Positions 1,529-43,016 of a DNA stretch of 64,000 nt are shown in pieces. The translations under genes and the position numbers were made by a program. Below the pieces are notes generated by a model. It had not been told where the DNA came from and searched no databases. It saw only the letters and a list, made by a program, of their open reading frames with translations. Positions within the stretch are counted from its first letter, which is position 1, and the number at the start of each line of letters is the position of its first letter. Location of the stretch: assembly GCA_030704615.1 (NCBI GenBank), contig CM060734.1, positions 55,056,001 through 55,120,000 on the forward strand, given 5' to 3'. The stretch comes from Takakia lepidozioides (taxonomy: Eukaryota > Plantae > Bryophyta).

Positions 1529-2185
1529 TGTTAGAGGACTGTGGGACTTAGACACTTTACGGGATCTGTAGGGTACCCTTAATTTTTGCACAGACTGAGA
1601 CCAACAGGAGCCTTAGGGGTGACAGCAGCGCACTGTAGAGGGGGTTACACAGCCGTCACAGCCAACACACACAGTCACAGCCACACAGAGCCCGTCACAG
1701 CCGTCACACACTACACCGTCACAACACAGCCACACAGCCAACACAGCCCGTCACAGCCGACACAGCCACACAGCCAGTCACAGCCCGACACAGCCAAACA
1801 CAGTCGCACAGCACAGTTTCACACAGCCAGTCACAACACAGCTGTCACGATCATAGGGAACGGAGAGCAGGACAGGGAACGACTGTGGGGAACAACACCT
1901 GCAAATGGAACATGTTAGTTCACGGACGACGGTTAGTGAGGGAAATGGTTAGAGCCGGGTAGGAAGATAAGGGAGAAGCAGATGATTCGAAGCACGTCTA
2001 GAGTACGGAAGCAAAGATGGAGAGCACGGTGAAGGAGGAGAGATGATTAGTAGATGCTTGTTATATGCAAAGCTAGCGTTAGAGACACAATGGCTTCGGC
2101 CTGATACTTGATAAATCATAATCTGATACTTATACGATACAATCACACTGTGTAGAGAGATCTGAGTGAAGCTGTGGAATGAATG
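1529..2185 (+). repeat. Family A 3' LTR of copy A1, left part (interrupted by element B)
   Basis: Starts TGTTAGAGGACTGT, contains a CACAG array at about 1648-1845, and is colinear with LTR 43017-43890 up to GTGGAATGAATG. Confidence 0.92.
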
Positions 2186-2245
2186 TGTCGTGATCGATTC
2201 CAAACCACACCACACATATATGCACAATAAAGTAGTCTGCCACAA
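2186..2245 (-). repeat. Element B short terminal repeat Y2 (partner of 2618-2662)
   Basis: TCCAAACCACACCACACATATATG and AGTAGTCTGCCACAAT recur at 2623-2662. This block is absent from the other end of the element. Confidence 0.85.
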
Positions 2246-2583
2246 TGATAAGAAAACTAGAAAAACACTGCTTATGAATCCATCGATATCACTCTTTAAA
2301 ACAGAAGTCGAGCCAGGGGCACCCCAAGCTATGGGGACTCCACCCCACAACAACCTACACTCCCATCATAAGCACACTCATCTAAACGCATGAAGGAGCT
2401 CGGTCGCGCAGGCTCAACTCGAGAAAGATGAGCTACGCGACTGCCGCTCTCGTGAAGATAAGACGGGTCAGGTGTCAAACTAAACTTGACACCTGATTTA
2501 ACACTTGACCTAAATCCAAGTGTTAAATACAAATAACTAGCTTTATTCTAGCTAGTTTCACACTGTGCTTATTTAACTTGACA
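2246..2583 (-). repeat. Element B long repeat X2 (LTR-like, 3' copy)
   Basis: TGATAAG..TTGACA, a direct repeat of 13209-13563, nearly identical over the last about 280 bp. Confidence 0.92.
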
Positions 2584-2617
2584 GCTGTTGTGCGCATACG
2601 TATCGCACACAACTACA

Positions 2618-2672
2618 TCGTGTCCAAACCACACCACACATATATGAGTAGTCTGCCACAATCGCCCCCCTA
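2618..2672 (-). repeat. Element B internal repeat Y1 with a short PPT-like tract
   Basis: The minus strand reads TAGGGGGGCGAT-TGTGGCAGACTAC. Y1 matches 2186-2245 with two gaps. Confidence 0.75.
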
Positions 2673-2920
2673 GCTGGTGGATAGGTCCCTCTACCTCCAG
2701 ATAGCTACAAGATGTAATAGCCACAGCCGTACTAAGTCCTCTATCACTGTCCTATGTACTCAAACTCTATAGACCAAGAGGCCGGGTACAAGAGTAGCCC
2801 CATCGTTAGTCGCCGTCTTGCAATCTGTGAACTTGAGCCAGGATCATGTTCAAGGTCTCCTGTAGCTGGGCCTTGCGTTTCTTGTTAGCCTTCCATGGTG
2901 TATCCACTCCCACTATCCAA

Positions 2921-3057
2921 TGCAACTGTGGACATAACCAATCCCCATCCGGAACCATCTCAAGAGGTGGAGTCAAGCATCCCATATGCCAACCTCTAGA
3001 GCATCGATCACACACCAGCATGGTGGCTGCCCCTTAGCAGACCCACACAACATGCAC
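2921..3057 (-). pseudogene. PHD zinc finger at the C-terminus of element B integrase
   Basis: CMLC-GSAKG..(frameshift)..MLVCDRCSRGWHMGCLTPPLEMVPDGDWLCPQ fits C4-H-C3 spacing with the typical P.G.W.C motif. The last Cys is shifted by one extra base. Confidence 0.9.
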
Positions 3058-4334
3058 CTCAAACCTGCAGATACCACTGCCAGGTTTGGGTCAATCCTGC
3101 CATCGACATTCGGAAGGTGACATGGCGCACAATTACGCACATGGTCCTTCCAAGTTATGCCATCCCGACCCTCCAAGACCAAGACGCCTGAGGGCAAGAC
3201 CTCTCGAACCCTCAAAATAACACGTCCTGCAGTCACATCCAGGGTCGTAGGAGCAGTCTGCTGCAGATAGACATAGTCGCCAGGGTTGAATCTCCGAACC
3301 CCAGGACGATAGCCCCCACCACGTATGGTAGCATACCTCAACGTATCACGGTGTTGTGCAATGGCAAGGTTCTCGAAAGCCATGGGCATGACTCTCTTGA
3401 ACAACTCTGCACGCTACTCACATGCACGTGCCCACACGTCCGGATCGTCAAGGTTAAGAACTGTAGCAGCTTCTCTGCGAATGGATGTAGGCAAATCCGG
3501 CTCTCGGCCAAAGAGAAGAAAGTATGGTGAGAAGGAGGCGAGTGATGCTTGCTTGCTGAACCTGTAGCCCATGGCTAACCAGGGTAACTGAAGGTCCCAA
3601 TCTCCTAGGTGGTCCCTTCTGCAAGCCATACTTGCGCAAACCCCTCTTTACTGTCTGAACAACTCTCTCTGCCAAGCCATCGGCCTCAGGATGATCCCGA
3701 GAAGAGGTGCGGTGGTCTATCAAGGCTTGTCACACAACGCCTGAAACTCCCCAAGAACTCTCTCCCTTGGTCCGTGAGTACCTCAGCTGGAGCACCGAAT
3801 CGGCTAAGCACACAATCCAAGAATGCATACGCAGCTCCCTCACTAGCCTTATCAGGCAATGGAACCAATTCATCCACTTGGAGAAGTGCTCCACCATCAC
3901 CAACACGTACTTGTTGTGGCGCATGGTCAGTGGCAATGGCCCTGCAAAGTCAAGACTCCACCTGTAGCCCAATCCCATGATCGGAAGAGGGTGCAATTGT
4001 GGGAGTAGGGGCGTTGAATGAAGCACGCACCCTGTCACACACCATGCACCTAGCCACAAATTGTTGCACCTCTGTGTGCATACCACGCCACCAGTACTGC
4101 CCCTGCAGTAGACTATGAGTGCGTCGCACCCCAAAATGCCCCAACTCCTCATGGGCATGGCGCACTAACCGTCCCGCTGTGTTGGGGAGGCACAATCCTC
4201 ACTCGACCATCCTCCCACACTCGGAGCAGGTGTGTCCCCTCCCACTTGAACCTCTTGGCTCGTTGTAGGATCCGATCCCTCTCCTTGGTAGTCACAGTGG
4301 CTGCCGTGTCTCCAGTGCGGAGGTAGTCCAACAC
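3058..4334 (-). pseudogene. Element B DDE integrase (frameshifted)
   Basis: HHCC finger (HEELGHFG..CMVC), WSLDFAGP, VLTDQGREF, HPEADGLAERVVQ, and C-terminal FNPGDYVYL. Confidence 0.93.
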
Positions 4335-4524
4335 AACTGAATCCTCATGTATATCTTTGCGCCACCTTGCTCATTGCTGGCCTCAGGGTCCTCAGACACT
4401 TGATCTACAGTCATCCCTGTTGCCGGTCCAACCTGGCCTTCCGCTGCCAAGATACACAAAATGCAGATGCATGCCATCCGGGCACCATCTCCTCGTCCGT
4501 CTCACCATGCCACCGAATCCAGTG

Positions 4525-5933
4525 TCATCCTGTTGGCTCGTGCATGGATTGCGACTCAACCATCTGCATTGCGATTGACCAACCCCGGTCGATGCACCAC
4601 CTGAAAGTCATACTCTTGAAGGATGAGTGCCCACCGTGAAGCTTCCCCGTAAGCTTGTCTGACTCCATCAACCACTTGAGTGGTTGGTGATCCGTGACAA
4701 GGGTGAAGAGATTGCCGTATAGATAGCACCTGAAGTGTGCCACGGCCCACACTGCAGCTAAGCATTCTCCCTCATATGAGCTATACTTAGACTCTGCAGC
4801 ATTGTTCGAGCGGCTAGCATAAGCCACTACGAACTCTCTTCCCTCATCATCCACCTGTGTGAGCACCGCTCCAAGCCCCAGCATGCTCCAATCTGTATGC
4901 AGCTGAAAAGGACGCCCCCTGATAGGTCGTCTCAAGATGGGCGCCGAGGTCAACCTCGCCTTGAGCTCTTGAAAAGCTTGTTCTTGCTCATCTTCCCACT
5001 GCCACTCCTGGTCCACCTTGGTCAGCTTGGTTAGAGCCTTTGCAATGGCACTAAATCCCTTAACAAACCGTCTGTAATAGTTTGCTAACCCCATGAAAGC
5101 TCGAACTCGGCTCACATCCGTGGGGCGTGGAACCTGTGCAATGGACTCTACCTTAGTCTGCTGTACCCCAATCCTCCAGGATATATCATGTGACCCAGAT
5201 ACTCAATCTGGTTGTGGAAAAACTTGCACTTTCCGGATGTAACTTCAATCCGTGCGCCCTCAAGCGCTCAAATACCCCTGAAGGTGTCTCTCATGCTCCT
5301 CCACCGTAGCACTAAAGATGATGATGTCATCTATGTAGCACCGAGCAACCTCCACCCCTGCTAGAATCCTGTCCATGACTCTTTGAAACTCAGCGGAGCA
5401 TTTTTAAGCCCAAATGGTAAGAACCGCCACTGGTATAGGCAATCCTTCCCGTGCTCATTGATCCCCCAGAATGCCGTCTTTTGCTTATCCGCCTTGATCG
5501 GCAACTGGTGATATCCGGATCGTAAATCCAACGTGCTAAAGACCTTGGAATGCCCAATGGCATCAAAGATCTCCTCTGGTGTCGGCATGGCATACCTATC
5601 GGACTTGGTCTGACGATTTACAGGCCGGTAATCACCGCACATACGTCTCTCCGTCCAATTGCCATAGACATCCTTCTTGGCTGGCATCACTGTGGCTGAA
5701 GCATACTCTCCACCAGAGAGCTCCACCAAACCTGCCTCCCAAAGATCCTGAGTTCTCATCTGAATCAAGGACCTCTCCATGTCACTGTATCTATAGGGTC
5801 TCCGAAAGATTGGCGTGTCAGTAGCCAATTCAATGCAAATCTCTGACCCTTCAGTGCTCCCAAGTCCTTCAAACTGAAGGCAAAACAATTCCTGTACGCC
5901 CTCAGGAACCACCGCATACGTTGTCTCTCTCAT
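4525..5933 (-). pseudogene. Element B reverse transcriptase and RNase H
   Basis: RMCGDYRPVN, FSTLDLRSGYHQ, LPFGLKNAP, YIDDIIIFS (about 5310-5338), FMGLANYYRRFV, LHTDWSMLGLGAVL, LVTDHQPL. Confidence 0.95.
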
Positions 5934-6329
5934 CCGGTGACAATGGGTCCAATGTCAGGCTCCCAATTGTCCTCCGTAACTGCAACCTTAAGTCCAGTGG
6001 CTTAGAGGTAGAGGACGCGTCCCGTGGTTGCTATGCTGCAACCTTTTGAGCAGTACTCCCTTCCTGCTCAGTCATTGACAAGGCCTCATCCTGCCCCATC
6101 ATCTCATCATTGAGAACCTCCTCATCCCGAGAAGAATCCCCAACCTCATCCATCACAGCTGCCTTCGCTGCCAACTCCCTCTGAACCTCGAGCACCTCCC
6201 ACGTGTGCCATGGATGTCTACACCCCGTGGTCCTCACCGGCTCACCCCCACTCGCTGCTTGTACCGTCCCGGTAGGCAGAGAGACCATGAAGGGGAGTGC
6301 ACTCCGCACTCTACGTTGCTCAGCCATAG

Positions 6330-7290
6330 CCAAGCTAATAATCCAGGTCAAGCAATTGAGATCCATTGCTTGCCCCAACACCTGACGTCGTGATGCCTCA
6401 GAAAGAGAAGGCACCGCCGTGGTCCCAGTGGAAAAACCCCATAGCCCGCTCTCGCTCGTCGGCATTAGGCTCCACTAACTGCTGCAATTGAGCATCCCAC
6501 AGGAGGCCAGGTCCACCATCCCGAAAAGCATGGGATCCTGGGAGCTGAGCAGTGTAGGTAATGCTGCTCGTGGTTGACCCACCCTGTTGACCACTGCCAA
6601 AGGCGAACGGTCATCGTGTCTCACACGTTGAGACTGCCTCCTTGTGTCCAAAATGCCATCCACGGTGAGGTGTGCTGGCCGCTGCACCCCATCAAATGCA
6701 CGCTTGAGTAGTGCAGGTGGCATCAAGTTAGTCCACCAAAGCCGTGGACGATGAGCCCGTGACCCCACTGCGGCTGAATCCAGCAACACTGCTGATCCAA
6801 GCCACGACCGGACTTGATGCACACTGGCCATCACCCTGGCCCGAGAATCGCCCATCAGTGGCACATTCTCCAAGATGTATGCTGGCGATACAGCTTGATG
6901 AAGCTGCAAGTGGCGCAAAATCCGCACCATCTCCCAAAACAGACCCGTCCTCGAGTCTCGCAATCCATTGCCATGCCCGGCTGATGAATGCCCTTGGCAG
7001 GGCCAACCTGCCACTACCAGATCAATGGAGCCAACCTGCTCCAAATCCGGCGCCCCCAACCAACGAAATGTCTGCTGGCAAGGCTTGTTGGTATCCACGA
7101 ACTGCAGACACTGGTAACAAAGCAGGGTACTGTTGTACCAACTGAGCAACATGGCGCAGTGAGACGCGTCGTGCAGTCTCATCCCTCTCCACATACAGGT
7201 AACACCTTACCCGCACACCTGCCTGTAGCACAGCAGCCAATCCAGTGCTGATCCCGCCAAACAAGTCCAAAAGGCAAATGCCTTCATCCG
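6330..7290 (-). pseudogene. C5 cytosine DNA methyltransferase domain inside the element B polyprotein (frameshifted)
   Basis: Motifs in canonical order: I LDLFGGISTG, II YVERD, IV DLVVAGWPCQGHS (catalytic PC), VI ILENV, VIII AHRPRLWW, IX ERERAMGFSTGTT, X RRQVLGQAMD. Confidence 0.93.
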
Positions 7291-7689
7291 GATACTGCCA
7301 CACAATAGGTGTGGTATCCAATGGTGACAACTGAGGTGGTCCTGGTGCAATACCCGCACTCTCCTCCTCTTCTGACGGTACAAAAGCCTCTACCCAGGCT
7401 TGTTGCACCCGTCGATCCAACCTGCTGCAAATCCTTGCTCGTACCCCACAATGGAGTGTGAGCAACCATGGCAGGCAACTCCGCCATACCATGCATGTCA
7501 TCCTGCTCTGCTGGAGGTGGCACATCCTCTGCATGGGCATTGCCTTCCAGCAACTCTCCAGGCCAACTAACTGCAGCTGTAAAGGCGGCTAGTGTTGGCA
7601 TCTTGCCCCGCTGGGCAGCCGCTATACCCCCAATGAATGTCACAGGGAGCTGTGCACGGCGACCATCGCCTGACTGCCATCCAGGCCTG

Positions 7690-8050
7690 TAGGATGCTGA
7701 CTCCTCCCAAAAGTCCAGGGTGAAGCCCATGGGGTATAACACTGCCCCACCAACGAGGACATCGTAAGAGACCGCGTCTGTCACAATGGCCTTGGCTCGC
7801 ATCACTGAGCCATCTCTAGGATGATCCGGCTGCAGTCTAATGGCCAACTGATGCCGTGTCATGCCCCGAGCCTGCTCTGATCCTCCCAGAGATGTCTGTA
7901 TCTGGAAAGGACAAGGCTCCATATCCGCCTCCATGAGGCCCAAACCTGCAATAGCAGCTCTGCCCAACATCAGTGGCTGAGTTCCCGAGTCCAACAAGAC
8001 CCAAGTGGCCGGTACTTCTTGCCTGCCGGTCCACTCAAAGTGAAAATGCC
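7690..8050 (-). pseudogene. Element B aspartic protease
   Basis: LLDSGTQPLMLG active site and downstream YDVLVGGAVL motif, in ORF 7284..7997. Confidence 0.85.
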
Positions 8051-8122
8051 TCCCTGGTGTCTAACAAGACAACTCCAGGTGTCACCGTGGCGCGCTCAAA
8101 GGCTGGCCTAGCTGGCAGCTCG

Positions 8123-10228
8123 TCAACTGGCAGCTGCAGCTTGCCATGGCGCAGCCGTGGCAGTCTTGACCCTCAAATCCGAGGATCCCTCTGCCACTAC
8201 ACCTTCCACTAACTCCGCAGAAGATGAAGTGACCTCCCCACTCTCACAGAGTGTTGCTGCTAGTCTAAACACTGCAGCTGGTCTCACCCCCGGCGTCGCA
8301 ATCATTGTTGCCGAGAACAGTGGGGCCTGACACACAGAGGTGGCTGCCCCCAATAACACACCGGTCGCACTAGCCTTGGCAGCAGGAGTCAATGCTGCAC
8401 GTGTAGCTCTCCCCAATGGCATAGAAACCTCCGCCTCGATAATAGTCGGGCGAGAACTAGGTGCCATGGATGGCGTCGACACAGTCTCCGCCAATGTGAA
8501 TGACTGAGGAAGCCTCGCCTGACGGCTTGCCTCCCCACGCTGTGGATCCAATTCCATCTCTGCACCTCGTGGCTCAGGAACTCGTGCTGCTCCTCGAGTC
8601 ACGGCTGCAGCAGACTCCACCTGCTCTAGTGGTAATGCTGCTCCGCACATAAATCCCATGCCTCCCATATCTCATCCCTCGGGAGCAAGAGGTGGACCAT
8701 CCCGCCTGGGAGCCGGTACTGCCTGAGCTATAGCCATGGCAGCGAGCCTCTGCTCTAGCTACTGAAGCCGGTTGGCCATGCCTTGATCAACACCCTGACC
8801 TCCGCGTCCTTGGCCATGTTGAGCTTGCCCTTGGTCTGCACCTCGTGCCCGACCACCTCGTCCTCTCTGGGCTGGTCCACCTCGCCCCCGGCCACCATTG
8901 TTCCCTTGGAATTGGCCTGGGCGCAACTCAGGATGCAAGTCATAACACTGGGCATCTCCATGCCCATACTTGCCACAATGCCCACACTGCAACTGTGCAG
9001 GCTGTGCTTGTGCCGGCCTTCTGCCACCCTCTGGGCAATCTCTCTTGACATGGGGTCCTCCACATGTCCAACATATCACCCCTGGTTGCTGTTGGCCTGC
9101 AAAAGACGCCACAGGCCTCTGCACCTGAGGTCCCCTGTAAGCTCCATGGAACTTGGGCTGAGCAGCCTTGCCCCCCTGACCACGCTGTTGGGCAGTCCCT
9201 TGTGCCTGTGGGCTGACAGTTGTGCCCCGTGCAGGCATGTCCTTGCCAAATCCAATTGTAACAACTCGCTCCTCCACCATGTTGAGCTCAATCCGCTCAG
9301 CCAGCAGAAACACATCTGCTAATGTGGGTTGGGCTGCTTGTAACAGGGTTGCATCTCGCACCCTTCTCTTGAGCTCCTTGTCCAGAATTCCATACCAAAA
9401 CTGGATTGCCTGAGCTTTAGTAACCCCTTGGGTCACACTTATCAAGCGCCTCATACGAGTGTACGCCTCTCGGAGGCTCTCATTGGGTTTCCGCTGGAAG
9501 TCTTGCAAACTTCGCAGCTTCTCTGTCCGTACGCCTTGGTAGTTCCTCCGCAACTCCTGGAAGAACTCCACCACCGGGTTGAATCTAGGCACATGTGTTG
9601 TAGTCGTGGCAGGAGGAGTAGTAGCACCTTTTGAACTGGTACCACCTGCAGAAGCACCAGCACTACTTGCTCCACTACTAGTGCTGGCAGTGGGAGCTAC
9701 TGGTACTGATGCAGCTACTGGTCGCGTCGTGCCTCGAGTAATGGAGACGTAGTCAGGTGACCAATACATCCTCTACTCCTCAATCTCTGCTTCATGTCCT
9801 CGCTTGAACTCGTGGTAATCGTCCATCGGCGGGCCTTCCAAATGCTGGAACAGTCCCTTCCACGCCATGAATGGGGTGAATAGCTGTGGATTGCGCATCT
9901 GCTGCAAATCACACCAGCTGTCGAACTCCTGGATAAAGTCATCCAACTCGATTGTGCCCACAGCTCCAGAGTACCTACGAGGCCCCTTGGTAGCTCCATA
10001 CATCTCCTCCATGTCGTCCCACAACAATGACGAATGAAAGTGCACATCAGTTGATGAAGCCTCCGAGTCTGTGTCTGACTCTACAGTAATTGAGGGTGGC
10101 GGTGAAGGTGGTCTGAACCGAATACCTCGTCTTGTGAACCCACTCTCACTGTTACTGCCTGTAGCCGTACTCTCCTCAAAACCCTTGGGTAACTCCGTAA
10201 TGACACTCACAATGTGCACCTCCTCCAC
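8123..10228 (-). pseudogene. Element B Gag and gag-PR spacer (one in-frame stop at 9773-9775)
   Basis: LDDFIQEFDSW, QRKPNESLREAYTR, knuckles CWTCGGPHVKRDC and CGHCGKYGHGDAQC, and an RGG-rich tail. ORFs 9773..10228 and 8759..9769 share a frame. The start may lie further upstream (about 10988). Confidence 0.85.
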
Positions 10229-11835
10229 GTGACACTATAAGGCTCTAGTACTAATCTAATAGTGACACGGGTGGGCACCTGTTGCAGTTTAAGGGTCATA
10301 TCCCAATGGCTCAGGGCACCTGCACCTGCACCTGCATCCACCGCAAGAACTCCTATGGTTGGCTGGTCATCAACCCAGCCTCACCATAGAAGAAACACTG
10401 GTGGTCTTGCTGGTCATCACTCCAGCCTCACCACCGACAGCATACTCTAGGATTGACCGGTGATCAAATCCGGCCTAATCCCTATGAAAGCAAGCGCCCA
10501 CACAAAACCAACATGGCGCACAGTCAAGCATGCAGGTGTTGGGGGGGATCCAAACACAAGAAATCAAAACATCAACACCCCCACACCAAAATCCAGCAGC
10601 AACGTTGATCCTGCAGAATATCCCAGCCCAAAACCCCGGACTGACTGGCCTCCACCAAGAGAGGCTTTGGCAACTACAAGTACAAGGTAATGAAAATAGT
10701 ACAGAGATGGAGGAGAAGAATAGAAGCCCGCCCAAGCAAGATCTAATCCTGATCTATGCTATCAACTGCCAGACTTCTCTCAAAGCGCCTCGCTCTGCCC
10801 TCAATGCCAACTACAGCAGTCTGTTGTCTACTGCTAATGCCTGACTCCCAGTATGCAATCAACTCGTCCAACTGTTCTCCACTCAAATCAGTCTGAGTTC
10901 CTTGGGAAACATAAATCCTGTCCCCTTGTGTGCACAGGCTAAGAGAAGAGACCTGCCCTTCAATTACGTCCTCATTTCCCCCAGCCATGCAAGGAGTACA
11001 TCCACAGATTTGTCTCTCATATAGACCAGCACAGGTTCTAGAGACAGGATTGTGGATCTTTTATGGCACACTCACACTCTAAAAATTCCATAGATTTTTA
11101 GCAGAGTCCCAAAAACAGAAACCAGGTCTAGGTAGGTAGATTTCCCCTTTCTGCAGCTATCCTCCCAAAAACTGAGTCAAACGGAGTCCATCTGACAAAG
11201 TTATGACCAGTTAGGCTCTAAATCATTTAAATTAGATCAAAAGGTTTTTTTTTTTTTTTTTTTTTAACACCAAAACGTTCTCGCCATTACAACCTGTTCC
11301 CAGGTTATCTATGGGTTCCCGAGGCCGTTCCCCTCCAGGCTTCTCCAGGCACCAAGAACTCTCCAACTCCAAGACTCGACCTCAGTTATGGATGGGGTAT
11401 CACACCCTGGAGCAGCAGGCGTGCGATAACGGATTGCCCTGCATCACCGAATTGGGGACAACGGCAGAGCTCGAGCGCCTGGGCTTAAGCGCATCCGAGA
11501 TTGATGATCTCCGACACAGTCTCAAGGCATTTCCACATGCCTTTCAGCTCTACATCAGCGGCAGATTTTGAGAAGTCATGCAGACAGACTGCTACAGCCT
11601 AACACTTTACAGCAAATTGAAATTCCTTGTGTCTGGGCATCAACACCGAAAACCTATGTAGGTACGCATGCAAAAATTGTTGCTGATGGCTGATATATGT
11701 GCCTATTCAAGAGGCCCGTTGCAGGTTAAAGGACGATTGGCAGGGAAATAGGCAAGAGTACTTTCCACTGAGCTGACCTTACGATCCCCAGAACTACTTG
11801 GAAACGGTAGCAACGAGAGCAGAGGTCGGACCTCA

Positions 11836-12150
11836 TCAGTGGGAGGGCACCCAGATGAGATCATTCTGAGTTGACCAATGGCATGCTTCGGCTCCCTGAA
11901 TAATGTTGAGAGCCGTGAAGGCAGGATGCTCTGATGCCCAGAGACTGGTATCCAAATGACATATGGCGACTGCGTGAATGATTGATCCATCTACAGCTGC
12001 CAACGACGCCTGCACCACCTTGGTTCCTGTGACATAATGGCAGTAGTAGAGAGCCGAAGGAAACATAACGTTGTGGCAAATGACAACATTCTCGCCCTCT
12101 ACCACACTTCGCTTGGTAAAGTCAACAACCTTCACTGGTGCCTTGGTAAT
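11836..12150 (-). pseudogene. Captured C-terminal fragment of a BURP-domain gene
   Basis: VICHNVMFPSALYYCH..AICHLDTSLWASEHPAF..ACHW..DLIWVP* contains the four CH dipeptides and terminal W of BURP. Confidence 0.9.
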
Positions 12151-12248
12151 GCCTACACGTCCCACTGATTTTGGTGAACAAGACTGACAAGGCCAACAGT
12201 TTTTTTTTTTTTTTTTTTTTTTGCCAAGAAAGCTGATGGGTGCTTTCA

Positions 12249-12960
<712 letters not shown>

Positions 12961-13108
12961 ACCCAAATAGCAGGTCCAGCCCACCTGCTTGTTGTAAAAA
13001 GCTTGGACCCGCTACATTCCCAGGAGGTTAGAACTGCTGCAACGACGCTTTGAGTGGTTCCTGCCTTCCTGTTATGCTCCACTAGGCACACATAGCCAGT
13101 CTAACTAC

Positions 13109-13123
13109 CGGCTCTCGTGACCA
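13109..13123 (-). other. Possible degenerate primer-binding site of element B
   Basis: Minus-strand TGGTCACGAGAGCCG only partly matches the tRNA-iMet PBS (TGGTATCAGAGCC) and lies about 85 bp from repeat X1. Confidence 0.35.
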
Positions 13124-13208
13124 AGCTATATTATAATAGTGCTTAAAAACAAAAACGTCACATCTAGCTTAGCACTAGAAAACTAGATACGGCGTCATCT
13201 TTCTCGAG

Positions 13209-13563
13209 TGATAAGAAAACTAGAAAACACACTGCTCACACCAGAAACAACATGAATCCATCGCTATCACTATTTAAAACAGAAGTCGAGCCAGGGGCAC
13301 CCCAAGCTATGGGGACTCCACCCCACAACAACCTACACTCCCATCATAAGCACACTCAAATCTAAACGCATGAAGGAGCTCGGTCGCGCAGGCTCAACTC
13401 GAGAAAGATGAGCTGCGCGACTGCCGCTCTCGTGAAGATAAGACGGGTCAGGTGTCAAACTAAACTTGACACCTGATTTAACACTTGACCTAAATCCAAG
13501 TGTTAAATACAAATAACTAGCTTTATTCTAGCTAGTTTCACGCTGTGCTTATTTAACTTGACA
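13209..13563 (-). repeat. Element B long repeat X1 (LTR-like, 5' copy)
   Basis: Direct repeat of 2246-2583. It ends TTGACA next to the TSD. Confidence 0.92.
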
Positions 13564-13804
13564 AATGGATGAGTTGATGGAATCCGATAGATTGATGAAG
13601 CAAACTGATACTTAATTATTAATGGTAAGGTACCTAACATGAATGCCAAAAGGGAAACAAATAGGAAACACCCCCATGATACACTAGCTGTAGGTCATGA
13701 CTGATTGTTCTGCGCGGGCTGAGTACTTAGAGATTTCCAACTCTTCTATCTTGGAGTTTCCGCCTCGGATAGCGAAGGGATGGGTGAGTAAAAGCCGCGC
13801 AACA
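13564..13804 (+). repeat. Family A 3' LTR of copy A1, right part
   Basis: Resumes AATGGATGAGTTGATGG and ends GAGTAAAAGCCGCGCAACA. Confidence 0.92.
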
Positions 13805-15628
13805 ACATGGTTAGGCCATGTGTTGTACCAGAAGTAAGTACAATGATAGTAACGAGAAGTAAAGCCAAACTAATACCTCCAGTAGTTGAGGAAGATGATG
13901 ATAATGAAGATGGCAGTGATGTGCCTGAAGATGATGAGGCTTGGAGAGATGAGAAAGAACTGCACAAAGAAGTGGCAGATACCATAAGGGAAATGCAGAA
14001 GAGTACTGATATTCCTATGGCAGATTCCTTAGATTCTGATGGAGAAGAAGAAGTGAGTGAGGAGGAAAGGAAGAAATAAGCTGCAGACATGCAGAGTAAT
14101 GAAGGGACTTTGGCTGAAGTAATATGCCAGACCAAAACAGAGATTACCATTGGACAGCTATTGGCTGTGGCACCTTATTGTAGACACAGGCTGTATCAAG
14201 CAATCAATCGAATTGCACAGGAGACAGGAAACACAGACCTGAACAGCAAGGTGACCAGTTATAATGTGAAGCCGGAAGGGCGAGAAACAGTCATGGACTT
14301 TGATGATTCTATGCCAGTAATCCAATTGAGAATTGGAAGCACAGAACTAACTGATGTACTGATAGATGGAGGCTCTGGAGTGAATATCATGACAGACCAA
14401 TTAAGGCAGAAGCTTGGTCTAAGTAACATGAAACCAGCCCCATTTACAGTAACAATGGCAGATCAAAGAAGTGTACAGCCATTGGGATTGATAAGAGGAG
14501 TTAAGATACAGATTCAAAAGATGATCTTTATGATCACAGTAACTGTGTTAAAAATGGATGAAGTCATGGAGGCTTACTCCTTATTATTGGGACGTCCGTG
14601 GCTGAAACAAGCCAGGGTATTCCATGACTGGAATTCTCAGTTACTAACTGTGCATAATGGGATGCACAAGATACAAATTACCACTAAGAAATCTAGTAGA
14701 TTACCTGCTACGAGAAGACCTCGAGGGGTCAGGGAGTATGACTGGAGGGGAGGACTGGATGAGGAGCAGGAGGCTACTCTGTTCGCTGCACACCTAGAGT
14801 GGGAGCAGGTTGCAGAGATGCAGCTCGAAGGCCTAAGTTGTTTAAGAGGTATCTGCTATGGTGTAGTGACAGCAACACCAATTGAAGAGGAAACCAGCAG
14901 TTACCCACCACATTTCTATGAAGAAAGAGAAGGAGAAATGGAAATCCTAGAGGAACCAGCCACTGTGAGTTTACAGGATGAAGTGGTGACTGGTTGGACA
15001 ATCACAGCTGATGAGCAGGTGAGAGAAGTGAATGTGGGAACTGAAGAGGAACCGAGGATGGTGAAGATAGGGGCTGATTTGGAGCCAAAAAGCTTTGAGG
15101 AAGCTAAGAGTTTGTTCATCAAATACAGAGATGTATTTGCCTGGAGCTACGAGGATCTAAAAGGGATACCACCTGAGATCTGTCAGCATAAGATTGAACT
15201 GGAACCAGGGTCAGTACCAATCAAACAGGCAAGGTACAGAATGAATCCCAACTATGCACAGAAGGTTGGAGAAGAGATCAAGAAGTTGGCTGAGGCTAAG
15301 TTTATATACCCGATAGAGTATACAACTTGGTTGTCACCCATTGTGATAGTTCCCAAGAAAAATGGTAAACTGAGAGTTTGTGTGAACTATAAGAAGTTGA
15401 ATGCTTGCACGAAGAAAGATCCTTTTCCTTTGCCATTCACAGAAGTGGTATTGGACACTGTGGCAGGCCATGAGATGTACTCATTCATGGATGGCTTCAG
15501 TGGTTATAATCAAGTGCAAGTGGCAGAAGAAGACCAGGGGAAGACAACTTTCATCACAGACTGGGGTGCTTATGCATACAAAGTCATGCCTTTTGGACTT
15601 TGGAATGCACCAGCAACCTTTCAGAGAG
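13805..15628 (+). pseudogene. Family A copy A0: end of gag, protease and N-terminal RT, truncated by deletion
   Basis: VLIDGGSGVN, LLLGRPWL, SFMDGFSGYNQ, MPFGLWNAPATFQR, then fused directly to the extra ORF through GAG microhomology at 15626-15628. Confidence 0.92.
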
Positions 15629-18036
15629 GTACCACATGTAGAATATGAAGCAACTGCAGCACCTGTGGCGGATGAGGTGGTTCAGGAAGAAAATCTGGTG
15701 GGGCAATGGCCTGAATGGTTCATGAGGCATCACACTGTTGAGGATCAGGGAGAACAGCAGCAAACTCACCATGATGACCCTCAGCAGGCCATGCTTATGA
15801 GTTCCATAAGCATGAAACTTAATTTGTTGGGCACTTATGTGAAATCCCATGTTCCATCTACCCAATTGGCAGCTTTGAGGGAGGAACTCAGGAAGGAGTT
15901 TGATGCTCGACTTGCCATTGAGTGTGCAAACAAGGTCGATGAGGAGGTCACTCTCAAGTTACAGCAAGAGTTAGAGGATACAACAACTGCTTTGCAGTTG
16001 GCCAAGGAACATTTGATTGAAGCAGGCCTCGCGCAGGACCAGTTGCACAAAGCACATAAACATACAGCTATACCAAATGCAGGTGAAACATGAGAGCAAG
16101 TTGCAAGAAGTGAATGCACTACATACGGAGTTGCAAACAGTACATGGGAGGATGGCCATACAATGTGCTACACTCACAACTACGCTTGAGCAAACTACAT
16201 TAGAAGTTAACAGCCAAGCGGAAAGATGTATAAAGGCACAGGCAGATAATGTCGAGCAGACGAAACTCATTATTGATATGAAGAATACAATCTGTCGCAA
16301 TGAGAACACTTTCAAGCAATACAGGCAGGTTGAAGCTGACCAAGAGAGGTACATCCTGGAATTGCAACAAACGGTCATGGTAAATAGCAATGAACTCTCT
16401 GTGGCTAACAAGGCTTGGAAGGAAGCCAATAATTTGGCTGCTGCCTATGCGAGTTTGGTTGAACCTCATGCGAAGCGCATGGAGGCTTTACAACAGCAGA
16501 TAGATGTGTACAGGCTCACAGAGGAGCAGACTCTCAGGGGTGCCACACGCAACTTGGTGGATAACCACCTTATGCAGGTCTGGTTAGCACAAGGGCCGGT
16601 GAAAGGTAAGGCACCGTGGGAGCTCATCCAGGGCGAGATGAATGAGCTCAGACTACAGGTGCAGAACATTGCCACAACTACTATAGACAATGTCTATAGT
16701 AGGATAGCGGAGCTACAGGAGGATGTAGATGGCCTGCAGACTCAGGTGGATGACCTGAGTTCAAATATTGACAAGAGAGTCTTTGTACCTGAGGAGCAGC
16801 TGATGGCTACTTATTTACAGGCCAGAACTCTAATTTTTCAGTCTTCTTTGCAAGGGGTGCATGAGATGCCAGTGGTAGAAGGGCCAGTGCTACCAATACC
16901 ACAACAAGTGACTGTGCAGGTAGCTGACCCTGTTGTTACTACAGCCACACCACAACCTCCACAGCCTGAGGTATGGGGGGATGCTGCTTTTAACCCACCT
17001 AAGACTCCTGCTGCACGGGAGTACAGTCGGGCTATGATTATGCCCTTCAACCAAATTCCCATTGTGTTGGATTTGGCTTGGAAGGAATTTAGTCCTTCAC
17101 AATCGTTGGCACATTACTACTAGATCATGCGCATTTGGCTGCCAGTGGCAACTAGGACTAAGGTTCTTCCGAACAATCGACCCATTGAGGATCATCACTT
17201 TGCGAGGTACTGGCATGAGGCAAGTACCATGTTGAAGGAATTAATTGCCTTCCAAGTTGTACATGGGTACATTTATACCAAGACCAAGGAGGTAGCAAGT
17301 ATTGTCATGGGCTGCGGGTTATACTATGCTACTTGTTTTCTGGCACGTTATCACATTGAGCAGCAGAAGATGCAATCGCGATTTCTGAGTTATTCTAGTG
17401 GGGATCATTGGGTCTTACCTTCAGTGTCACCTCATATGTACCTATATGAAGCAAAAGTTCTGATGGAAAATGATTCTCAAATTCATTCATGATTTCATTC
17501 GGTCTGGAACAATTTGTCAACACAGAAATTCGGGCCTGATGATATTTTCCTTAAGGGACATGAGGCATGGAAATACTTGCACTATTCTCAAGTCATTAGC
17601 ACACCACTCATCTGTACAGACAAGGAGTTCAGGGTCTTCACCAATTTTGCAATTCAACGCTTACAACAAGTTTTACAAATTAAACTTCCAGACATGGTGG
17701 GACCACATTGTATGCCCCAGAGGATTCCAGTTAGAGTTCGACCGTTAAAACACCTCAGGGGGGAAGACGATTCTGATACTACTGTTTCTTCAGCGGACTC
17801 TTTTGACATGGCAGATGACTATGCAATTCAGATGGCAGAGAAGAAGCGACGGGGGTCTCCTATGCCTGAGAGATTACCTCGATATCAGCCAAAGGAGGGA
17901 CTGACATTTTCCAGGTAGTGCTCAATCATCTCCGTCAACCAGTGACAGGGCACGGGCTCGCACACGGAGTCCTTCACGAGACTCTCAACGTCAGAAGGGT
18001 GCTCGCTCACAAAGGTTTGCTAATCCCAAACAGTAA
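15629..18036 (+). pseudogene. Family A extra ORF, copy A0 (C-terminal two thirds)
   Basis: Near-identical to about 20780-23178; ORFs 16017..17123 and 17127..17492. Confidence 0.85.
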
Positions 18037-18075
18037 ACCGTGAGGACACGGCTTTTTGAGAGGGGGAGGGGTAAA

Positions 18076-19060
18076 TGTTAGAGGGCTGCTTGGGACTTAG
18101 ACGCTTTTACGGGATCTGTGGGGTACCCTTAATTTTTACACAAATTGAGACCAACAGGAGCCTTAGGGGTGACAGCAACAGGCTTTAGGGGGAGAGATAC
18201 ACAGTCTGACACAGCCCGTCACAGTCCGACACAGCCGACACAGCCGACATAGTTGTCACAGTCCGACACAGCCAACACAACCGACACAGTCAGACACAGC
18301 AGTCACAGTCAACACAGCCGCCACAGCTTCGCATAGCCCGACACAGCTCGACACAGCCCGACACAGCCAGTCACAGCCCGCCACAGCCTGATACAGCCAG
18401 TCACAGCTCGGCACAGCTGGGGGACAGTTATCATTGGTAGGGAACGACTGTGCGGGAACGACATCTGAAAAAGGAACGTATACTACAGGGATGATGGTTA
18501 GTTAGGAAATCGGTTAGAACAGCTTGTAGGTAGATAAAGCCAAGAGCGGGGACGTCTGGGGGATGACTTCTTGGGGGGGACTTCTGGCATCGCGGCTTGG
18601 AAATGAAGAGGAGAGCGCATCTCTGAGTGGAAAGATGGAGAGCACGGAGTAGGAGGAGAGACGATCTGTTGATACTTGATGAATGCAAGCTGTAGAATTG
18701 TAATGTAGAGTAGATTAGAGATACCATGGCTTCAGCCTGATACTTGATAGATATTAATCTGATACATACTTCATACTCACACTGTATAGAGAGACCTGAG
18801 TGAAGCTATGGAATGAATGGATGAGTGGATGGAACCTGATAGATTGCTGAAGCAATCTGATACTTAATTGCAGACAGTAAGGTAACTCGCTAACATGAAT
18901 GCGGGAAGGAGTACAAATGGGAAACACCCCCATGATACACTAGCTGTAGGTCATGACTGATTGTTCTGAGCGGGCTGAGTGCTTAGACATTTCCAACTCT
19001 TCTATATTGGAGTTCCCACCTCGGATAGCGAAGGGATGGGTGAGTAAAAGCCGCTTGACA
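18076..19060 (+). repeat. Family A 3' LTR, subfamily b (copy A0)
   Basis: PPT GAGAGGGGGAGGGG upstream; TGTTAGAGGGCTG..GCCGCTTGACA; CACAG array at about 18200-18420. Confidence 0.92.
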
Positions 19061-19431: not shown

Positions 19432-22400
19432 ATGGCGGAAATAACAGACTACACACTCACATTACTACTTACGCAATGGCACAAGGACGGACGAACAGAG
19501 AGTACCTTTTCTCTAAATCAATACTTGCAAGCCCCACAGGCTTACAAGCACTTACCCATTTCATTCTGCGCCAACCATACTTTTATGCTTTGTGCCCCGC
19601 AAGCGTTTTTTCAGTTGTTGCAACCAAAACCTATCTGTTTGTCCAGAATGAAGAGAGTGAGAGGAATGGAAGATATCAGGGTGAAAAGCACCACAATCTT
19701 ACAGAAGCAAACGATCGCTGCACCACAGGCGGTGCAGCTACTAAAGGAGCTGCGATTGGAGGGATTGTTACGCAAGGACCGGTCCTTGCATCATCGGCAG
19801 TTCATGATACAATTTCTTCAGAACTTTGAGCCTCGGATGGGAGTTACTCAGGTGAGGGGAGTAGATATAGAAATTACTCCCCAGTACCTGCAACGATTGT
19901 TTGATTTGCCATCAGGACATGTCGATGTGGATGAGCACAGGGCAAGATTGCAGATAGGGAATTTGTTCCAAGAAACAAGGTTTTGCTTGTACCAAAGTTG
20001 AGTACCCAGGGCTTAGGGAAGTTGGCCAAATCTTGAACGTTCTGTTTGCCATGAAACAGAACCAGCAGTATTTGAGGAGGTCCTTCACAGAGGAGATCCT
20101 GAAAGCTTTGAGGGAACAGGATGTCGCTTGGGCGGAGTTAATGTACAACGGATTGGTGGACGAGATGAAGAGGTTACAGGGCACTGCTGCTAAGTCTCCG
20201 ATCATTGTGTCCAGTCCAGTCATTGCCCAAATAATTCTTGATTCTTGCATACTTGATGCTCGGGAACATAAGGAGATGGGAGTGTTTGAGGCAGAAACCA
20301 CTGCAATAGAAGAGCAAGGCTCTTCAAACAGTGAGGGTGGACTGATAGCGCAACACCAGTCTAAGAGACAAAGGCGGGGTATGACTGTAGTGGCGGATCC
20401 ACTGGCTTCACGGAAACCGCACGATAATGTCTCCCAAGCTCTTGTGCACGATGGGGCACATCAGCACAGAGAGCTGCTATTATTGGAAGCAGGGCCTTCA
20501 GAGAGGGAAGAGGAAGTCACTTCGATACCACAACCACCACAACCAATTGACTCTGTTGTTTTAGAGGTTCCACAGTTAGTATGTGTTGTGGCATCACCCC
20601 TCATTGCTCTGGAAGGAGAAAGGTTGGACATTCCCACTACAGAGCAGGTCGTGGCCGAAATTGAGAAGGGTGACCTTTTCTATGAAATTTTGGGCTTGGT
20701 AAGGGAAACAGTGATTCCAGAGGTGCAGCGGTTGTCCAGGGGAAACCCTGCTGTGCATGTAATACCCACACCTATGACGGAGGTACCAGGGGTAGAATAT
20801 TAAGACACTGCAGCACCTCTAGCGGATAAGGTGGTTCAGGAAGAAAATCTGGTGGGGCAATGGCCTGAATGGTTCGTGAGGCATCACACTGTTGAGGATC
20901 AGGGAGAACAGCAGCAAACTCACCATGATGACCCTCAGCAGGCCATGCTTATGAGTTCCATAAGCATGAAACTTAATTTGTTGGGCACTTATGTGAAATC
21001 CCATGTTCCATCTACCCAATTGGCAGCTTTGAGGGAGGAACTCAGGAAGGAGTTTGATGCTCGACTTGCCATTGAGTGTGCAAACAAGGTCGATGAGGAG
21101 GTCACTCACTCTCAAGTTACAGCAAGAGTTAGAGGATACAACAACTGCTTTGCAGTTGGCCAAGGAACATTTGATTGAAGCAGGCCTCGCGCAGGACCAG
21201 TTGCACAAAGCACATAAACATACAGCTATACCAAATGCAGGTGAAACATGAGAGCAAGTTGCAAGAAGTGAATGCACTACATACGGAGTTGCAAACAGTA
21301 CATGGGAGGATGGCCATACAATGTGCTACACTCACAACTACGCTTGAGCAAACTACATTAGAAGTTAACAGCTAAGCGGAAGATGTATAAAGGCACAGGC
21401 AGATAATGTCGAGCAGACGAAACTCATTATTGATATGAAGAATACAATCTGTCGCAATGAGAACACTTTCAAGCAATACAGGCAGGTGAAGCTGACCAAG
21501 AGAGGTACATCCTGGAATTGCAACAAACGGTCATGGTAAATAGCAATGAACTCTCTGTGGCTAACAAGGCTTGGAAGGAAGCCATAATTTGGCTGCTGCC
21601 TATGCGAGTTTGGTTGAACCTCATGCGAAGCGCATGGAGGCTTTACAACAGCAGATAGATGTGTACAGGCTCACAGAGGAGCAGACTCTCAGGGGTGCCA
21701 CACGCAACTTGGTGGATAACCACCTTATGCAGGTCTGGTTAGCACAAGGGCCGGTGAAAGGTAAGGCACCGTGGGAGCTCATCCAGGGCGAGATGAATGA
21801 GCTCAAACTGCAGGTGCAGAACATTGCCACAACTACTATAGACAATGTCTATAGTAGGATAGCGGAGCTACAGGAGGATGTAGACGGCCTGCAGACTCAG
21901 GTGGATGACCTGAGTTCAAATATTGACAAGAGAGTCTTTGTACCTGAGGAGCAGCTGATGGCTACTTATTTACAGGCCAGAACTCTAATTTTTCAGTCTT
22001 CTTTGCAATGGGTGCAGGAGATGTCAGTGGTAGAAGGGCCAGTGCTACCAATACCACAACAAGTGACTGTGCAGGTAGCTGACCCTGTTGTTACTACAAC
22101 CACACCACAGCCTGAGGTATGGGGGGATGCTGCTTTTAACCCACCTAAGACTCCTGCTGCACGAGAGTACAGTCGGGCTATGATTATGCCCTTCAACCAA
22201 ATTCCCATTGTGTTGGATTTGGCTTAGAAGGAATTTAGTCCTTCACAGTCGTTGGCACATTACTACCAGATCATGCGCATTTGGCTGCCAGTGGCAACTA
22301 GGACTAAGGTTCTTCCGAACAATCGACCCATTGAGGATCATCACTTTGTGAGGTACTGGTCTGAAGCAAGTACCATGTTGAAGGAATTAATTGCCTTCCA

Positions 22401-23178
22401 AGTTATACATGGGTACATTTACACCAAGACCAAGGAGGTAACAAGTATTGTCATGGGCTGTGGATTATACTATGCTGCTTGTTTTATGGCACGTTATCAC
22501 ATTGAGCAGCAGAAGATGCAATCGCGATTTCTGAGTTATTCTAGTGGGGATCATTGGGTCTTACCTTCAGTGCCATCATATGTACCTATATGATGCAAAA
22601 GTTATGATGCAGAAGGAATCCCACCTTCGTTCATAGTTTCATTCGGCTTGGAACAATTTGACAACACAGAAATTCGGCCCTGACAATATTTTCTTTAAGG
22701 GACATGAGGCATGGAAATACTTGCACTGTTCCCAAGTCATTGGCACACCTCTTACGTGTACAGATAAGGAGTTCAGGACGTTCACTAATTTTGCGTGCCA
22801 GCGCTTGCAACAAGTTGTGCAATTTAAACTTTCAGATATGGTTGGACAACATTGTATGCCACAGAGGATTCCACTTAAAGTTTGGCCGTTTAAACACCTG
22901 AGGGGCGACGAGGATTCTGATACTATTGTTTCTTCAGCGGACTCCTTTGACATGGCAGAGGACTAGGCAATTCAGATGGCAGAGAAGAAACGACGGGGGT
23001 CTCCTATGCCTGAGAGGTTACCTCGTTATCAGCCAAAGGAAGGACAGCCATTTCCAGGTAGTGCTCAATCATCTCCGTCAACCAGTGACAGGGCACGGGC
23101 TCCACACGGAGTCCTTCACGAGACTCTCACCGTCAGAAGGGTGTTCGGTCACAAAGGTTTGCTAATCCTAAACAGTAA
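19432..23178 (+). pseudogene. Family A extra ORF, full-length frameshifted copy (about 1,250 codons)
   Basis: MAEITDYTL start, colinear with 34823-38564. It has an N-terminal FLQNF..VRGVDIEITPQYLQRLFDLP region, a long coiled coil, a Pro/Thr linker, an aromatic-rich domain and a basic tail. Confidence 0.8.
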
Positions 23179-23217
23179 ACCGTGAGGACACGGCTTTTTG
23201 AGAGGGGGAGGGGTAAA

Positions 23218-23487
23218 TGTTAGAGGGCTGCTTGGGACTTTAACGCTTTTACAGCGTGGGGTACCCCTAATTTTTACACAGACTGAGACCAACAGGAGCC
23301 TTAGGGGTGACAGCAGCAGGCTTTAGGGGGGGGTTACACAGCCCGCCACAGCGTTATACAGCCCGACACAGCCCGACATAGCCCGACATAGCCAGTCACA
23401 GCCGCCACTGCCAACACAGCCTGATACAGCCCGACAGCCAGTCACAGCCAGCACAGTCATCACAGTCCATCACAGTCGTCACAGTCC
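23218..23487 (+). repeat. Truncated family A 3' LTR (subfamily b)
   Basis: PPT, then TGTTAGAGGGCTGCTTGGG. Homology ends within the CACAG array. Confidence 0.85.
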
Positions 23488-32593: not shown

Positions 32594-33447
32594 TGTTAGA
32601 GGACTGTCGGGGACTTAGACACTTATACGGGATCTGTAGGGTACCCTTAATTTTTGCACAGACTGAGACCACAGGAGCCTTAGGGGTGACAGCAGCGCAC
32701 TATAGAGGGGGTTACACAGCCCGTCACAGTCGTCACGCAGACACAGCCGACACAGCCAACACAGCCGTCGTCACAGTCGACACAGCCAGGCACAGCCACA
32801 CAGCCAGTCACAGCCCGACACAGCCAAACACAGTCGCACAGCCAGTCACAGTCCGTCACAGTTTCACACAGCCAGTCACAGCTTGACACAGCTGTCACGA
32901 TCATAGGGAACGAAGAGTAGGACAGGGAACGACTGTGGGGAACAACACCTGCGAAGGGAACATGTTAGTTCACAGACGACGGTTAGTGAGGGAAACGGTT
33001 AGAACCACGGATAGGAAGATAAAGGGAGAAACGGGGAATTGAGGATATCATTCGGAGGAGGACTTCTTGGTCATGGAAGAGGGGATCGGGCAGAGATGAA
33101 GAACGGAAGTGAAGATAGAGAGATGATGAGTAGATGCTTGATATATGCAGGCTGTAATGATATTGTAGAGTAGATTAGAGACCAATGGCTTCGGCCTGAT
33201 ACCTGATAAATCATAATCGGATACTTTTACGATACAATCACACTATGTAGAGAGATCTGAGTGAAGCTGTGGAATGAATGGATAGTTGATGGAATCCATA
33301 GATTGATAAAGCAAACTGATACTTAATTATCAATGGTAAGATAGCTAACATGAATACCAAAAGGGAAACAAATAGGAAACACCCCCATGATACACTAGCT
33401 GTAGGTCATGACTGATTGTTCTGCGCGGGCTGAGTACTTAGAGATTT
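32594..33447 (+). repeat. Family A 5' LTR of copy A3 (3' end missing)
   Basis: TG start preceded by AACGC (TSD partner AACAC at 43891-43895). It shares diagnostic variants with 43017-43890. Confidence 0.9.
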
Positions 33448-38564: not shown

Positions 38565-38600
38565 ACCGAGGACACGGCTTTTTGAGGGGGGAAGGGGTAA

Positions 38601-42978: not shown

Positions 42979-43016
42979 ACCGTGAGGACACGGCTTTTTG
43001 AGGGGGGAAGAGGTAA

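Follow-up and report, generated by a model that had tools for sequence, protein, structure and literature searches.

The window analysed here, a stretch of 64,000 nucleotides from the bryophyte Takakia lepidozioides (assembly GCA_030704615.1, contig CM060734.1, forward-strand positions 55,056,001 to 55,120,000), contains a retrotransposon with both a C5 cytosine DNA methyltransferase and a PHD finger. The locus raises the question of whether the methyltransferase belongs to a retrotransposon lineage or was picked up once, and of how such an element would be translated, copied and integrated. We find the locus to be a dead member of a Ty3/Gypsy family that is both old and abundant and that encodes a DNMT3-type methyltransferase together with a PHD finger at the end of the integrase; we regard this identity, and the conservation of the arrangement, as nearly certain. 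The explanation that we consider best overall, and likely as a whole, joins to this identity self-priming of reverse transcription, a leaky stop codon, self-methylation and end-joined integration.

The element lies on the minus strand, where six-frame translation placed gag, protease, methyltransferase, reverse transcriptase (RT), RNase H, integrase and PHD finger in this order from 10234 down to about 2920, with more than 10 frameshifts and stops (some of them possibly assembly errors). A Pfam scan of 14 stop-free pieces identified PF00145 (E 4.6e-13), RVT_1 (2e-10), RNase H (3e-34) and the integrase zinc finger (4e-17), and PF00628 matched a C4HC3 PHD finger at 2899-3033 (7.3e-10) that is broken near 3033 and near 2926. 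Matches of this copy to rve and Retrotrans_gag fell below the cut-off (1e-3 each), and the protease piece, which has an LLDSG motif near 8000, had no Pfam match. An earlier note on this DNA, made from its letters alone, had described a methyltransferase between protease and RT and a PHD finger ending the integrase; translation and Pfam agree with it on both, and in the related loci L022 and L024 the PHD finger is followed by a stop. (L-numbers denote relative loci in metagenome contigs, and P-numbers database proteins.) Moreover, RT, RNase H and a DDE integrase follow one another in the Ty3 order, and the best solved relative of the second open reading frame (ORF) of L022 is the Ty3 Gag-Pol protein (E 3e-98).

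The element extends well beyond 2921..10228, the limits given to it before. It runs from 2186 to 13563, starts with TG, ends with CA and forms an 11.4-kb insert that splits a neighbouring long terminal repeat (LTR). Five other window copies of this target LTR run uninterrupted through the site of insertion, and the empty site is also found at joints of sequencing-read contigs. These findings, together with the repeats and a 4-bp target duplication, indicate that 2186-13563 is one insertion, that it landed in the LTR of another element (as the earlier note had supposed), and that the LHCB4 and BURP sequences, previously taken for neighbouring host genes, are cargo inside the element. The features are as follows.

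2182..2185: target-site duplication, left copy, 4 bp (AATG on the plus strand), from the empty-site comparison
2186..2245, minus: repeat B2, the 3' end of the element, ending CACGACA (same end in L007, L008 and L018)
2246..2583, minus: repeat A2 (TG...CA), with 5 substitutions in 337 aligned bases and 3 indels relative to A1
2584..2661, minus: repeat B1 and 2-base spacer; B1/A2 junction ACA-GC-TGT, the same in L007, L022 and L024
2662..2671, minus: G-rich, polypurine-tract-like sequence, upstream of B1 and not of A2
2910..3065, minus: PHD finger ending the integrase, frameshifted (PF00628; intact in L007, L022 and L024)
3066..4200, minus: integrase (zinc finger and core), frameshifted (PF17921, PF00665)
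4600..5950, minus: RT and RNase H, frameshifted (PF00078, PF17917, PF17919)
6025..6033, minus: amber stop (6031-6033) then CAR-YYA, closing gag-protease-methyltransferase (context comparison)
6330..7290, minus: DNMT3-type C5 cytosine methyltransferase, unpermuted motifs, in at least three frames (Pfam, motifs, relatives)
7600..8060, minus: aspartic protease (motif; weak Pfam matches in L022, P0027 and P0260)
8100..10140, minus: gag, two zinc knuckles and linker (translation, Pfam)
10141..11244, minus: 5' leader common to other copies of the family (high contig depth down to about 11060)
11245..12222, minus: cargo, a BURP-domain fragment (about 11543-12199; PF03181, 3.7e-28) and a further piece, between two A-runs
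12223..13030, minus: cargo, an LHCB4 (CP29) fragment, frameshifted, 3' end cut short (PF00504)
13195..13208, minus: putative primer-binding site directly after A1, complementary to 13397-13411 within A1, self-priming type
13209..13563, minus: repeat A1, the 5' end of the element, starting TGTCA (repeat comparison)
13564..13567: target-site duplication, right copy, 4 bp, matching the left copy
1501-2185 with 13564-13805; 18047-19054; 32594-33447; 38573-39492; 42989-43891; 48800-49809: copies of the target LTR family

Within the cargo (11245-13030), the LHCB4 piece is followed by an A-run, the BURP piece, a stretch at about 11266-11540 whose depth is intermediate, and another A-run. When compared with 16 named proteins, the N-terminal LHCB4 piece (86 residues) was closest to Sphagnum (90% identity), followed by Ceratodon, Physcomitrium, Calypogeia and the hornwort Nothoceros (86-88%), Marchantia and Riccia (80%), Diphasiastrum (79%), and a fern, seed plants and Mesotaenium (70-77%); the second LHCB4 piece was less decisive (64-74%). 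These identities make a bryophyte host likely. LHCB4 matches a contig of sequencing run X7, which has the same organism code, at about 97%, and the BURP region, which is of low DNA depth, also matches a run X7 contig. Contig depth in run X1 is about 1,700 times higher over the coding body than over the cargo (a rough ratio, not a copy number), and this contrast argues for an abundant family with cargo specific to this copy. We found no target duplication flanking the cargo, the best shared word being 7 bases. The cargo looks like the product of template switching among abundant mRNAs and may have entered by a LINE-type insertion or by capture during replication; the family is also able to take along pieces of host mRNA.

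History of the methyltransferase

The methyltransferase is of the DNMT3 type as judged by its sequence and by a low-confidence predicted fold. Motif I lies near 7270, IV (PCQ) near 7005 and X near 6370, with II, VI (ENV) and VIII between them, so that the motif set reported in the earlier note holds except for motif IX, which is broken in the window copy only; the catalytic residues are intact. For the relative from Calypogeia, the best 29 of 48 distinct solved-structure matches were DNMT3A/B/C, followed by plant DRM and ahead of bacterial enzymes. Similarly, all 34 Foldseek matches listed for a model of the L022 enzyme were DNMT3 structures (best E 1e-12), and against this result weighs the low confidence of the model itself (mean predicted local distance difference test score 55, and below 50 in the target-recognition region).

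Searching with the methyltransferase piece of the window identified 43 longer proteins (best 60-71% identity), among which are named proteins of Marchantia polymorpha, Calypogeia fissa and Sphagnum. The lineage does persist in land plants, as had been suspected. With a full-length relative as query, 103 proteins were found, including ones from Closterium, Scenedesmus, Haematococcus and Chlamydomonas eustigma; neither the 43 nor the 103 proteins include one named for Klebsormidium. Metagenome contigs contributed 37 loci, of which 32 have further domains or strong matches (L033-L037 are weak methylase-only matches) and one, L022, is complete and intact apart from one in-frame stop. Viral contigs yielded 6 phage-type methylases and no such element. 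The relatives have two layouts. The window element, the bryophyte proteins and Closterium share the order protease-methyltransferase-RT, and a chlorophyte-type order, RT-RNase H-methyltransferase-integrase-PHD, is found in 52 of the 196 proteins with a domain match; either the methyltransferase moved within the polyprotein or it was gained twice.

Several of these relatives have features of their own. P0033, P0035, P0253 and other chlorophyte-type proteins have a further conserved region downstream of the PHD finger; there is also one G-patch match, a chromodomain match in P0380, and a PHD finger ahead of the RT in two Haematococcus proteins. Annotation places the Marchantia proteins P0285, P0286 and P0290 on the V (male sex) chromosome and labels them hypothetical or CCHC-type, and such gene models may inflate or confuse counts of methyltransferase genes.

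Among the intact loci L022, L023 and L024, the ratio of non-synonymous to synonymous substitution rates (dN/dS) of the methyltransferase was 0.11-0.13 in 3 of 3 pairs, and L031 and L032 gave 0.10-0.14 when compared with L022. Motifs IV, VI and VIII are retained in the window and most loci. (Note that in all 4 window pairs synonymous sites are saturated and the non-synonymous difference is 22-32%, so that the result on selection concerns intact relatives only.) The RT gave 0.04-0.05 among L022, L023 and L024, and the methyltransferase evolves 2-4 times faster than the RT and integrase, a point against the explanation favoured here. In trees of 88 sequences (FastTree local supports; three window RTs as the only outgroup; sequences with fewer than 150 RT or 200 methyltransferase residues and 7 near-duplicates left out), 28 of the 31 RT splits with support of at least 0.95 recur in the methyltransferase tree and 1 conflicts with it. 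Distances for the two domains are likewise correlated (Mantel rho 0.79, reached by 0 of 200 permutations), and the window copy clusters with Marchantia, L001, L009, L022 and L024 (supports 0.999 and 0.997). The congruence of the trees argues for an old lineage rather than a recent capture. In addition, summed contig depth over the methyltransferase in run X1 was 1.02 times that over RT-RNase H, which indicates that other copies in the host keep the methyltransferase.

These findings bear on an alternative in which a host DNMT3 or DRM gene was captured once, recently, and is now decaying, and in which the repeats came about by chance through nested insertions. Such a capture would fit a window copy that is full of breaks and carries captured LHCB4 and BURP sequence, and it would fit the methyltransferase dN/dS of 0.49-0.82 among dead Sphagnum-type copies (the proteins of this family have ends like those of the named Sphagnum proteins). 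However, the RT of the same dead copies decays alike (0.35-0.79), the same domain stands in the same place in the sets of 103 and 43 database proteins, and 4 of 4 insertions have identical ends and 4-bp duplications; to these are added the congruent trees, the dN/dS of about 0.1 in intact relatives and the even depth. We consider this alternative already refuted in substance and extremely improbable, and the earlier note's expectation of a lineage, rather than a single capture, well founded.

Translation, priming and integration

In L001, L022, L023 and L024 the frame is open across the methyltransferase, is interrupted by one amber codon, at the position of 6031-6033 in the window, and is open again into the RT. 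The six bases 3' of the amber codon read CAR-YYA in the window, L001, L022, L023, L024 and L032, a sequence that we take to be a readthrough signal of the tobacco mosaic virus type. In the window, 6025..6033 is the sole site of the coding span at which an amber codon is followed by CAR-YYA (chance about 0.0013 per site), and a near-match, CAACCC, follows TAG (12) or TAA (4) in 16 Sphagnum-type loci. Moreover, many database proteins, including six from Marchantia (about 1,280 residues), end 94-138 residues past motif X. Weighing against a stop that is general to the family, P0260, P0314 and P0316 are single open frames. The earlier note's one polyprotein thus exists as an open frame in these three proteins and, in the loci divided by the amber codon, would be made only by readthrough; the window copy itself is not one frame.

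The sequence context makes readthrough at the amber stop quite probable. Most ribosomes would stop there and release Gag-protease-methyltransferase, and a minority would read through and add RT-RNase H-integrase-PHD. A leaky stop would mean that the methyltransferase is made together with Gag, in amounts far exceeding those of RT and integrase, and is packaged at capsid stoichiometry; it predicts that the methyltransferase is a major component of the particle.

Reverse transcription is very likely self-primed, as suggested by complementarity between the site directly after A1 and a segment in the middle of A (15, 16 and 15 bases in the window, L007 and L022, respectively). The primer-site sequences of these three elements are mutually unrelated, which argues that the pairing is conserved and not the sequence, and none of 2,926 leader 10-mers has such a complement. 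The predicted 5' end of the window element folds with both segments paired (z -4.75); that of L007 folds weakly better than its shuffles (z -1.91), a point on the other side. Transcription would start in the middle of A1, and its first 14-16 bases would pair with the site just after A1 and serve as primer.

On the sense strand, A1 is followed by the primer site, the cargo, the leader, the coding region, the purine tract, B1, two bases, A2 and finally B2, which gives split direct repeats of the form A1-internal-B1-A2-B2. The repeats of L007 have the same layout and unrelated sequences. Four of four complete insertions have 4-bp target duplications, always with TGTCA at the left end and CACGACA at the right. 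(The 3' end of L022, B-A-primer site-leader, is a possible assembly collapse and was excluded from the complete insertions; L004/L007, L018/L019 and L025/L026 share flanks, each pair being counted once.) The B1/A2 junction consists of both element ends joined head to tail, in the manner of integrase substrates, in the window, L007, L022 and L024. The polypurine-tract-like sequence upstream of B1 is conserved in L006, L007, L008, L009, L022 and L024. A1 and A2 on their own were also considered as LTRs and were ruled out, there being no matching duplication at their flanks.

There is about an even chance, in our estimate, that this layout arises through an end-joined intermediate. If the plus strand were started at the purine tract upstream of B, reverse transcription would yield a linear copy with the terminal repeat B-spacer-A, in which the ends used by integrase lie mid-repeat. 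If the ends of this copy were joined and one internal CACGACA/TGTCA site cut, A-coding-B-A-B would be integrated; were both internal sites cut, the product would be A-coding-B, a form that is found in L008 (with its duplication intact) and at the 3' end of L009. No two of the three A2/B2 junctions seen are alike, and the L018 junction retains 9 bases of the primer site plus filler, which resembles joined ends of complementary DNA (cDNA).

Three observations weigh against this route. Two indels distinguish B1 from B2 in the window, though the model copies both from one template; the A-coding-B copies L008 and L009 could stem from later recombination between B1 and B2; and the mirror form A-B-A-coding-B, in which B precedes A1 and which equal cutting of either internal site in a two-repeat circle should produce, was found at 0 of 8 distinct left ends, so that the end-joined model needs an asymmetry. 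Template jumps of the DIRS/Ngaro kind, which would use the B1/A2 junction as template and leave integrase to act on ordinary linear ends, are inherently asymmetric and would fit the missing mirror products. The layout, moreover, is exactly that of the split direct repeats of DIRS-type elements (as far as can be told from the accessible text of PMC8969392 and the legend to Fig. 4 of PMC5890265). However, minus-strand synthesis would begin at A1, from the primer site next to it, so that B2, at the 3' end of the RNA, would not be copyable in the usual order, and the primer-site remnant and filler of L018 resemble joined ends. Template jumping is in our view a possibility, if a somewhat doubtful one. 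Should the end-joined route hold, the end structure would provide a naturally occurring integrase element in which the integrated copy is permuted relative to the cDNA. Copies of the family do not end in two matching terminal repeats, and standard LTR surveys may have missed the lineage for this reason.

Two further details of the repeats were observed. At 2586-2615 a near-perfect inverted repeat lies within B1 and is missing from B2; it may have been skipped in copying. In L008 (5963-5973 and 11501-11613) the A repeat is 11 bases long and the region from the RT to the integrase core is deleted, with the 4-bp duplication intact.

Possible roles of the methyltransferase and the PHD finger

The PHD finger had a dN/dS of 0.07 in one intact pair. 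Among the best 60 of 92 matches, its closest solved relatives are CHD4, PHF12, PHF21A, KAT6A, ATXR5, KDM5, UHRF1, BAZ2 and AIRE, which we take to be mostly readers of the unmodified histone H3 tail. A finger of this class might steer insertion away from active promoters, as reading of the unmodified tail would favour silent chromatin; we consider targeting of integration by the PHD finger, suggested by these similarities, slightly more probable than its absence. The single insertion in the window, into another LTR, fits such targeting as one case.

The simplest task for an enzyme packaged alongside Gag would be self-methylation, towards which we lean by analogy with related enzymes. The methyltransferase would mark the new DNA copy, probably at CG, and the copy would arrive already resembling host heterochromatin. 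At synonymous junctions CpG is depleted to 0.36 of expectation in the window element and to 0.05-0.66 in L001, L022 and L024. This tells against a footprint specific to self-methylation, since three neighbouring Ty3 frames of another family are depleted equally or more strongly (0.08-0.30). CHG depletion was not found in the same composition test.

An alternative is that the methyltransferase is kept for another role, whether methylating or binding RNA or DNA as a structural part of the particle, or methylating the DNA of the host or of rival elements in trans. Such a role would suit the differing placement of the methyltransferase, which belongs to the abundant Gag frame in the window element and lies between RNase H and integrase in most relatives of the chlorophyte type; it would also suit the missing element-specific CpG loss. 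The Klebsormidium enzyme, moreover, did not methylate in yeast, a result that weighs against self-methylation and that its authors call inconclusive in the accessible text (PMC5890265). By contrast, the same text reports that related Symbiodinium retrotransposon DNMT3s methylate CG de novo in yeast (PMC5890265), and the catalytic motifs IV, VI and VIII persist in families that are saturated at synonymous sites. We judge another role to be unlikely and continue to favour methylation of the new copy.

Taken furthest, the observations can be read as a Gypsy clade spread across the green lineage, with attachment sites mid-repeat, in which circular cDNA would be integrated after methylation by a DNMT3 present at capsid level and a PHD finger reading unmodified H3 would replace the ADD domain of host DNMT3; we put this forward tentatively. 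Integration from end-joined circular cDNA is a route long discarded for retroviruses. If the reading were true, de novo CG methylation in bryophytes would have a mobile source numbering hundreds to thousands of copies.

The surroundings of the element were noted in passing. At least six copies of the target LTR family lie in the window, and the family contains arrays of a 10-base unit; its internal regions (for example, 14080-15645 and 43773-46079) encode a protease and an RT of the Ty3 type and show strong CpG loss. The family also has a long extra frame (15616-17915 and 20770-23250), which is repeated about 5.15 kb apart, recurs at 1-1500 and had no Pfam match in the pieces scanned. At 54951-58342 there are three long frames without a Pfam match, in which CpG loss (0.71) is milder than the window average.

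Comparison with known systems

The element is of the same kind as KnitGypsy-Dnmt3 of Klebsormidium nitens (de Mendoza et al. 2018, PMC5890265) and so is not a new class. As the earlier note had proposed in linking the locus to the elements of that study, both have the Gypsy order, an unpermuted DNMT3-related domain under purifying selection, and DIRS-like repeats (given in the legend to Fig. 4 of PMC5890265 and left unexplained there). KnitGypsy-Dnmt3 was described from a charophyte alga only, with the domain in the Pol frame, whereas in several relatives of the window element an amber codon separates methyltransferase and RT. The accessible text of PMC5890265, its figures being outside this comparison, is silent on a PHD finger, land plants, chlorophytes, the stop, self-priming, target duplications and the function of the repeats. 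The role of retrotransposon-borne methyltransferases has been open since 2018, in part because the known hosts are hard to handle. Close relatives of the window element are annotated genes in Marchantia polymorpha, for which methylation mutants and methylomes exist, and the question is thereby made testable.

A PHD-bearing Gypsy element, REM1 of Chlamydomonas, was reportedly described by Perez-Alegre in 2005. Gypsy-7a_cRei of Chlamydomonas likewise has a PHD finger in its polyprotein, proposed to guide insertion, and prefers intergenic sites; the accessible text mentions no methyltransferase for it (PMC9940879). EpiLTRs of Cymbomonas and Euglena, which carry an adenine methylase, a DNMT4-like domain and a chromodomain, also pair a methyl writer with a chromatin reader in an LTR retrotransposon, and in the part of the preprint available their authors separate them from Gypsy-DNMT3 elements (bioRxiv 10.64898/2026.05.21.726589). 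Pfam scans of L022 found no adenine methylase, DNMT4-like domain or chromodomain, its domain being DNMT3-like instead. Tcn1 and Tf1/Sushi chromoviruses are self-priming Ty3/Gypsy elements of mosses and club-mosses that end in a chromodomain (PMC6317226, accessible text). The window element resembles Tcn1 in its self-priming site, predicted from complementarity, and has a PHD end instead; PF00385 had no match in L022 or L024. As available, the survey in PMC6317226 mentions no methyltransferase and neither Marchantia nor Sphagnum.

PHD-bearing Gypsy elements and writer-plus-reader LTR elements are thus already published from algae, at least in the accessible texts. The lineage in land plants or chlorophytes, its stop, its self-priming and its internal integrase site were not described in the literature within reach, which leaves aside subscription journals, Repbase reports and theses.

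The interest of the family rests mainly on its testability in Marchantia and on the structure of its ends. Split direct repeats are common to it and DIRS/Ngaro elements, from which it differs by its DDE integrase and 4-bp duplications; no tyrosine recombinase match was found in the 14 sense-strand pieces of the window or the two ORFs of L022. Finally, foamy-virus integrase is described, in the accessible text, as cleaving the palindromic junction of two-LTR circles (PMC1180852). In foamy virus that junction arises only in the circle, whereas in the family described here it is written into the element, in every full copy.

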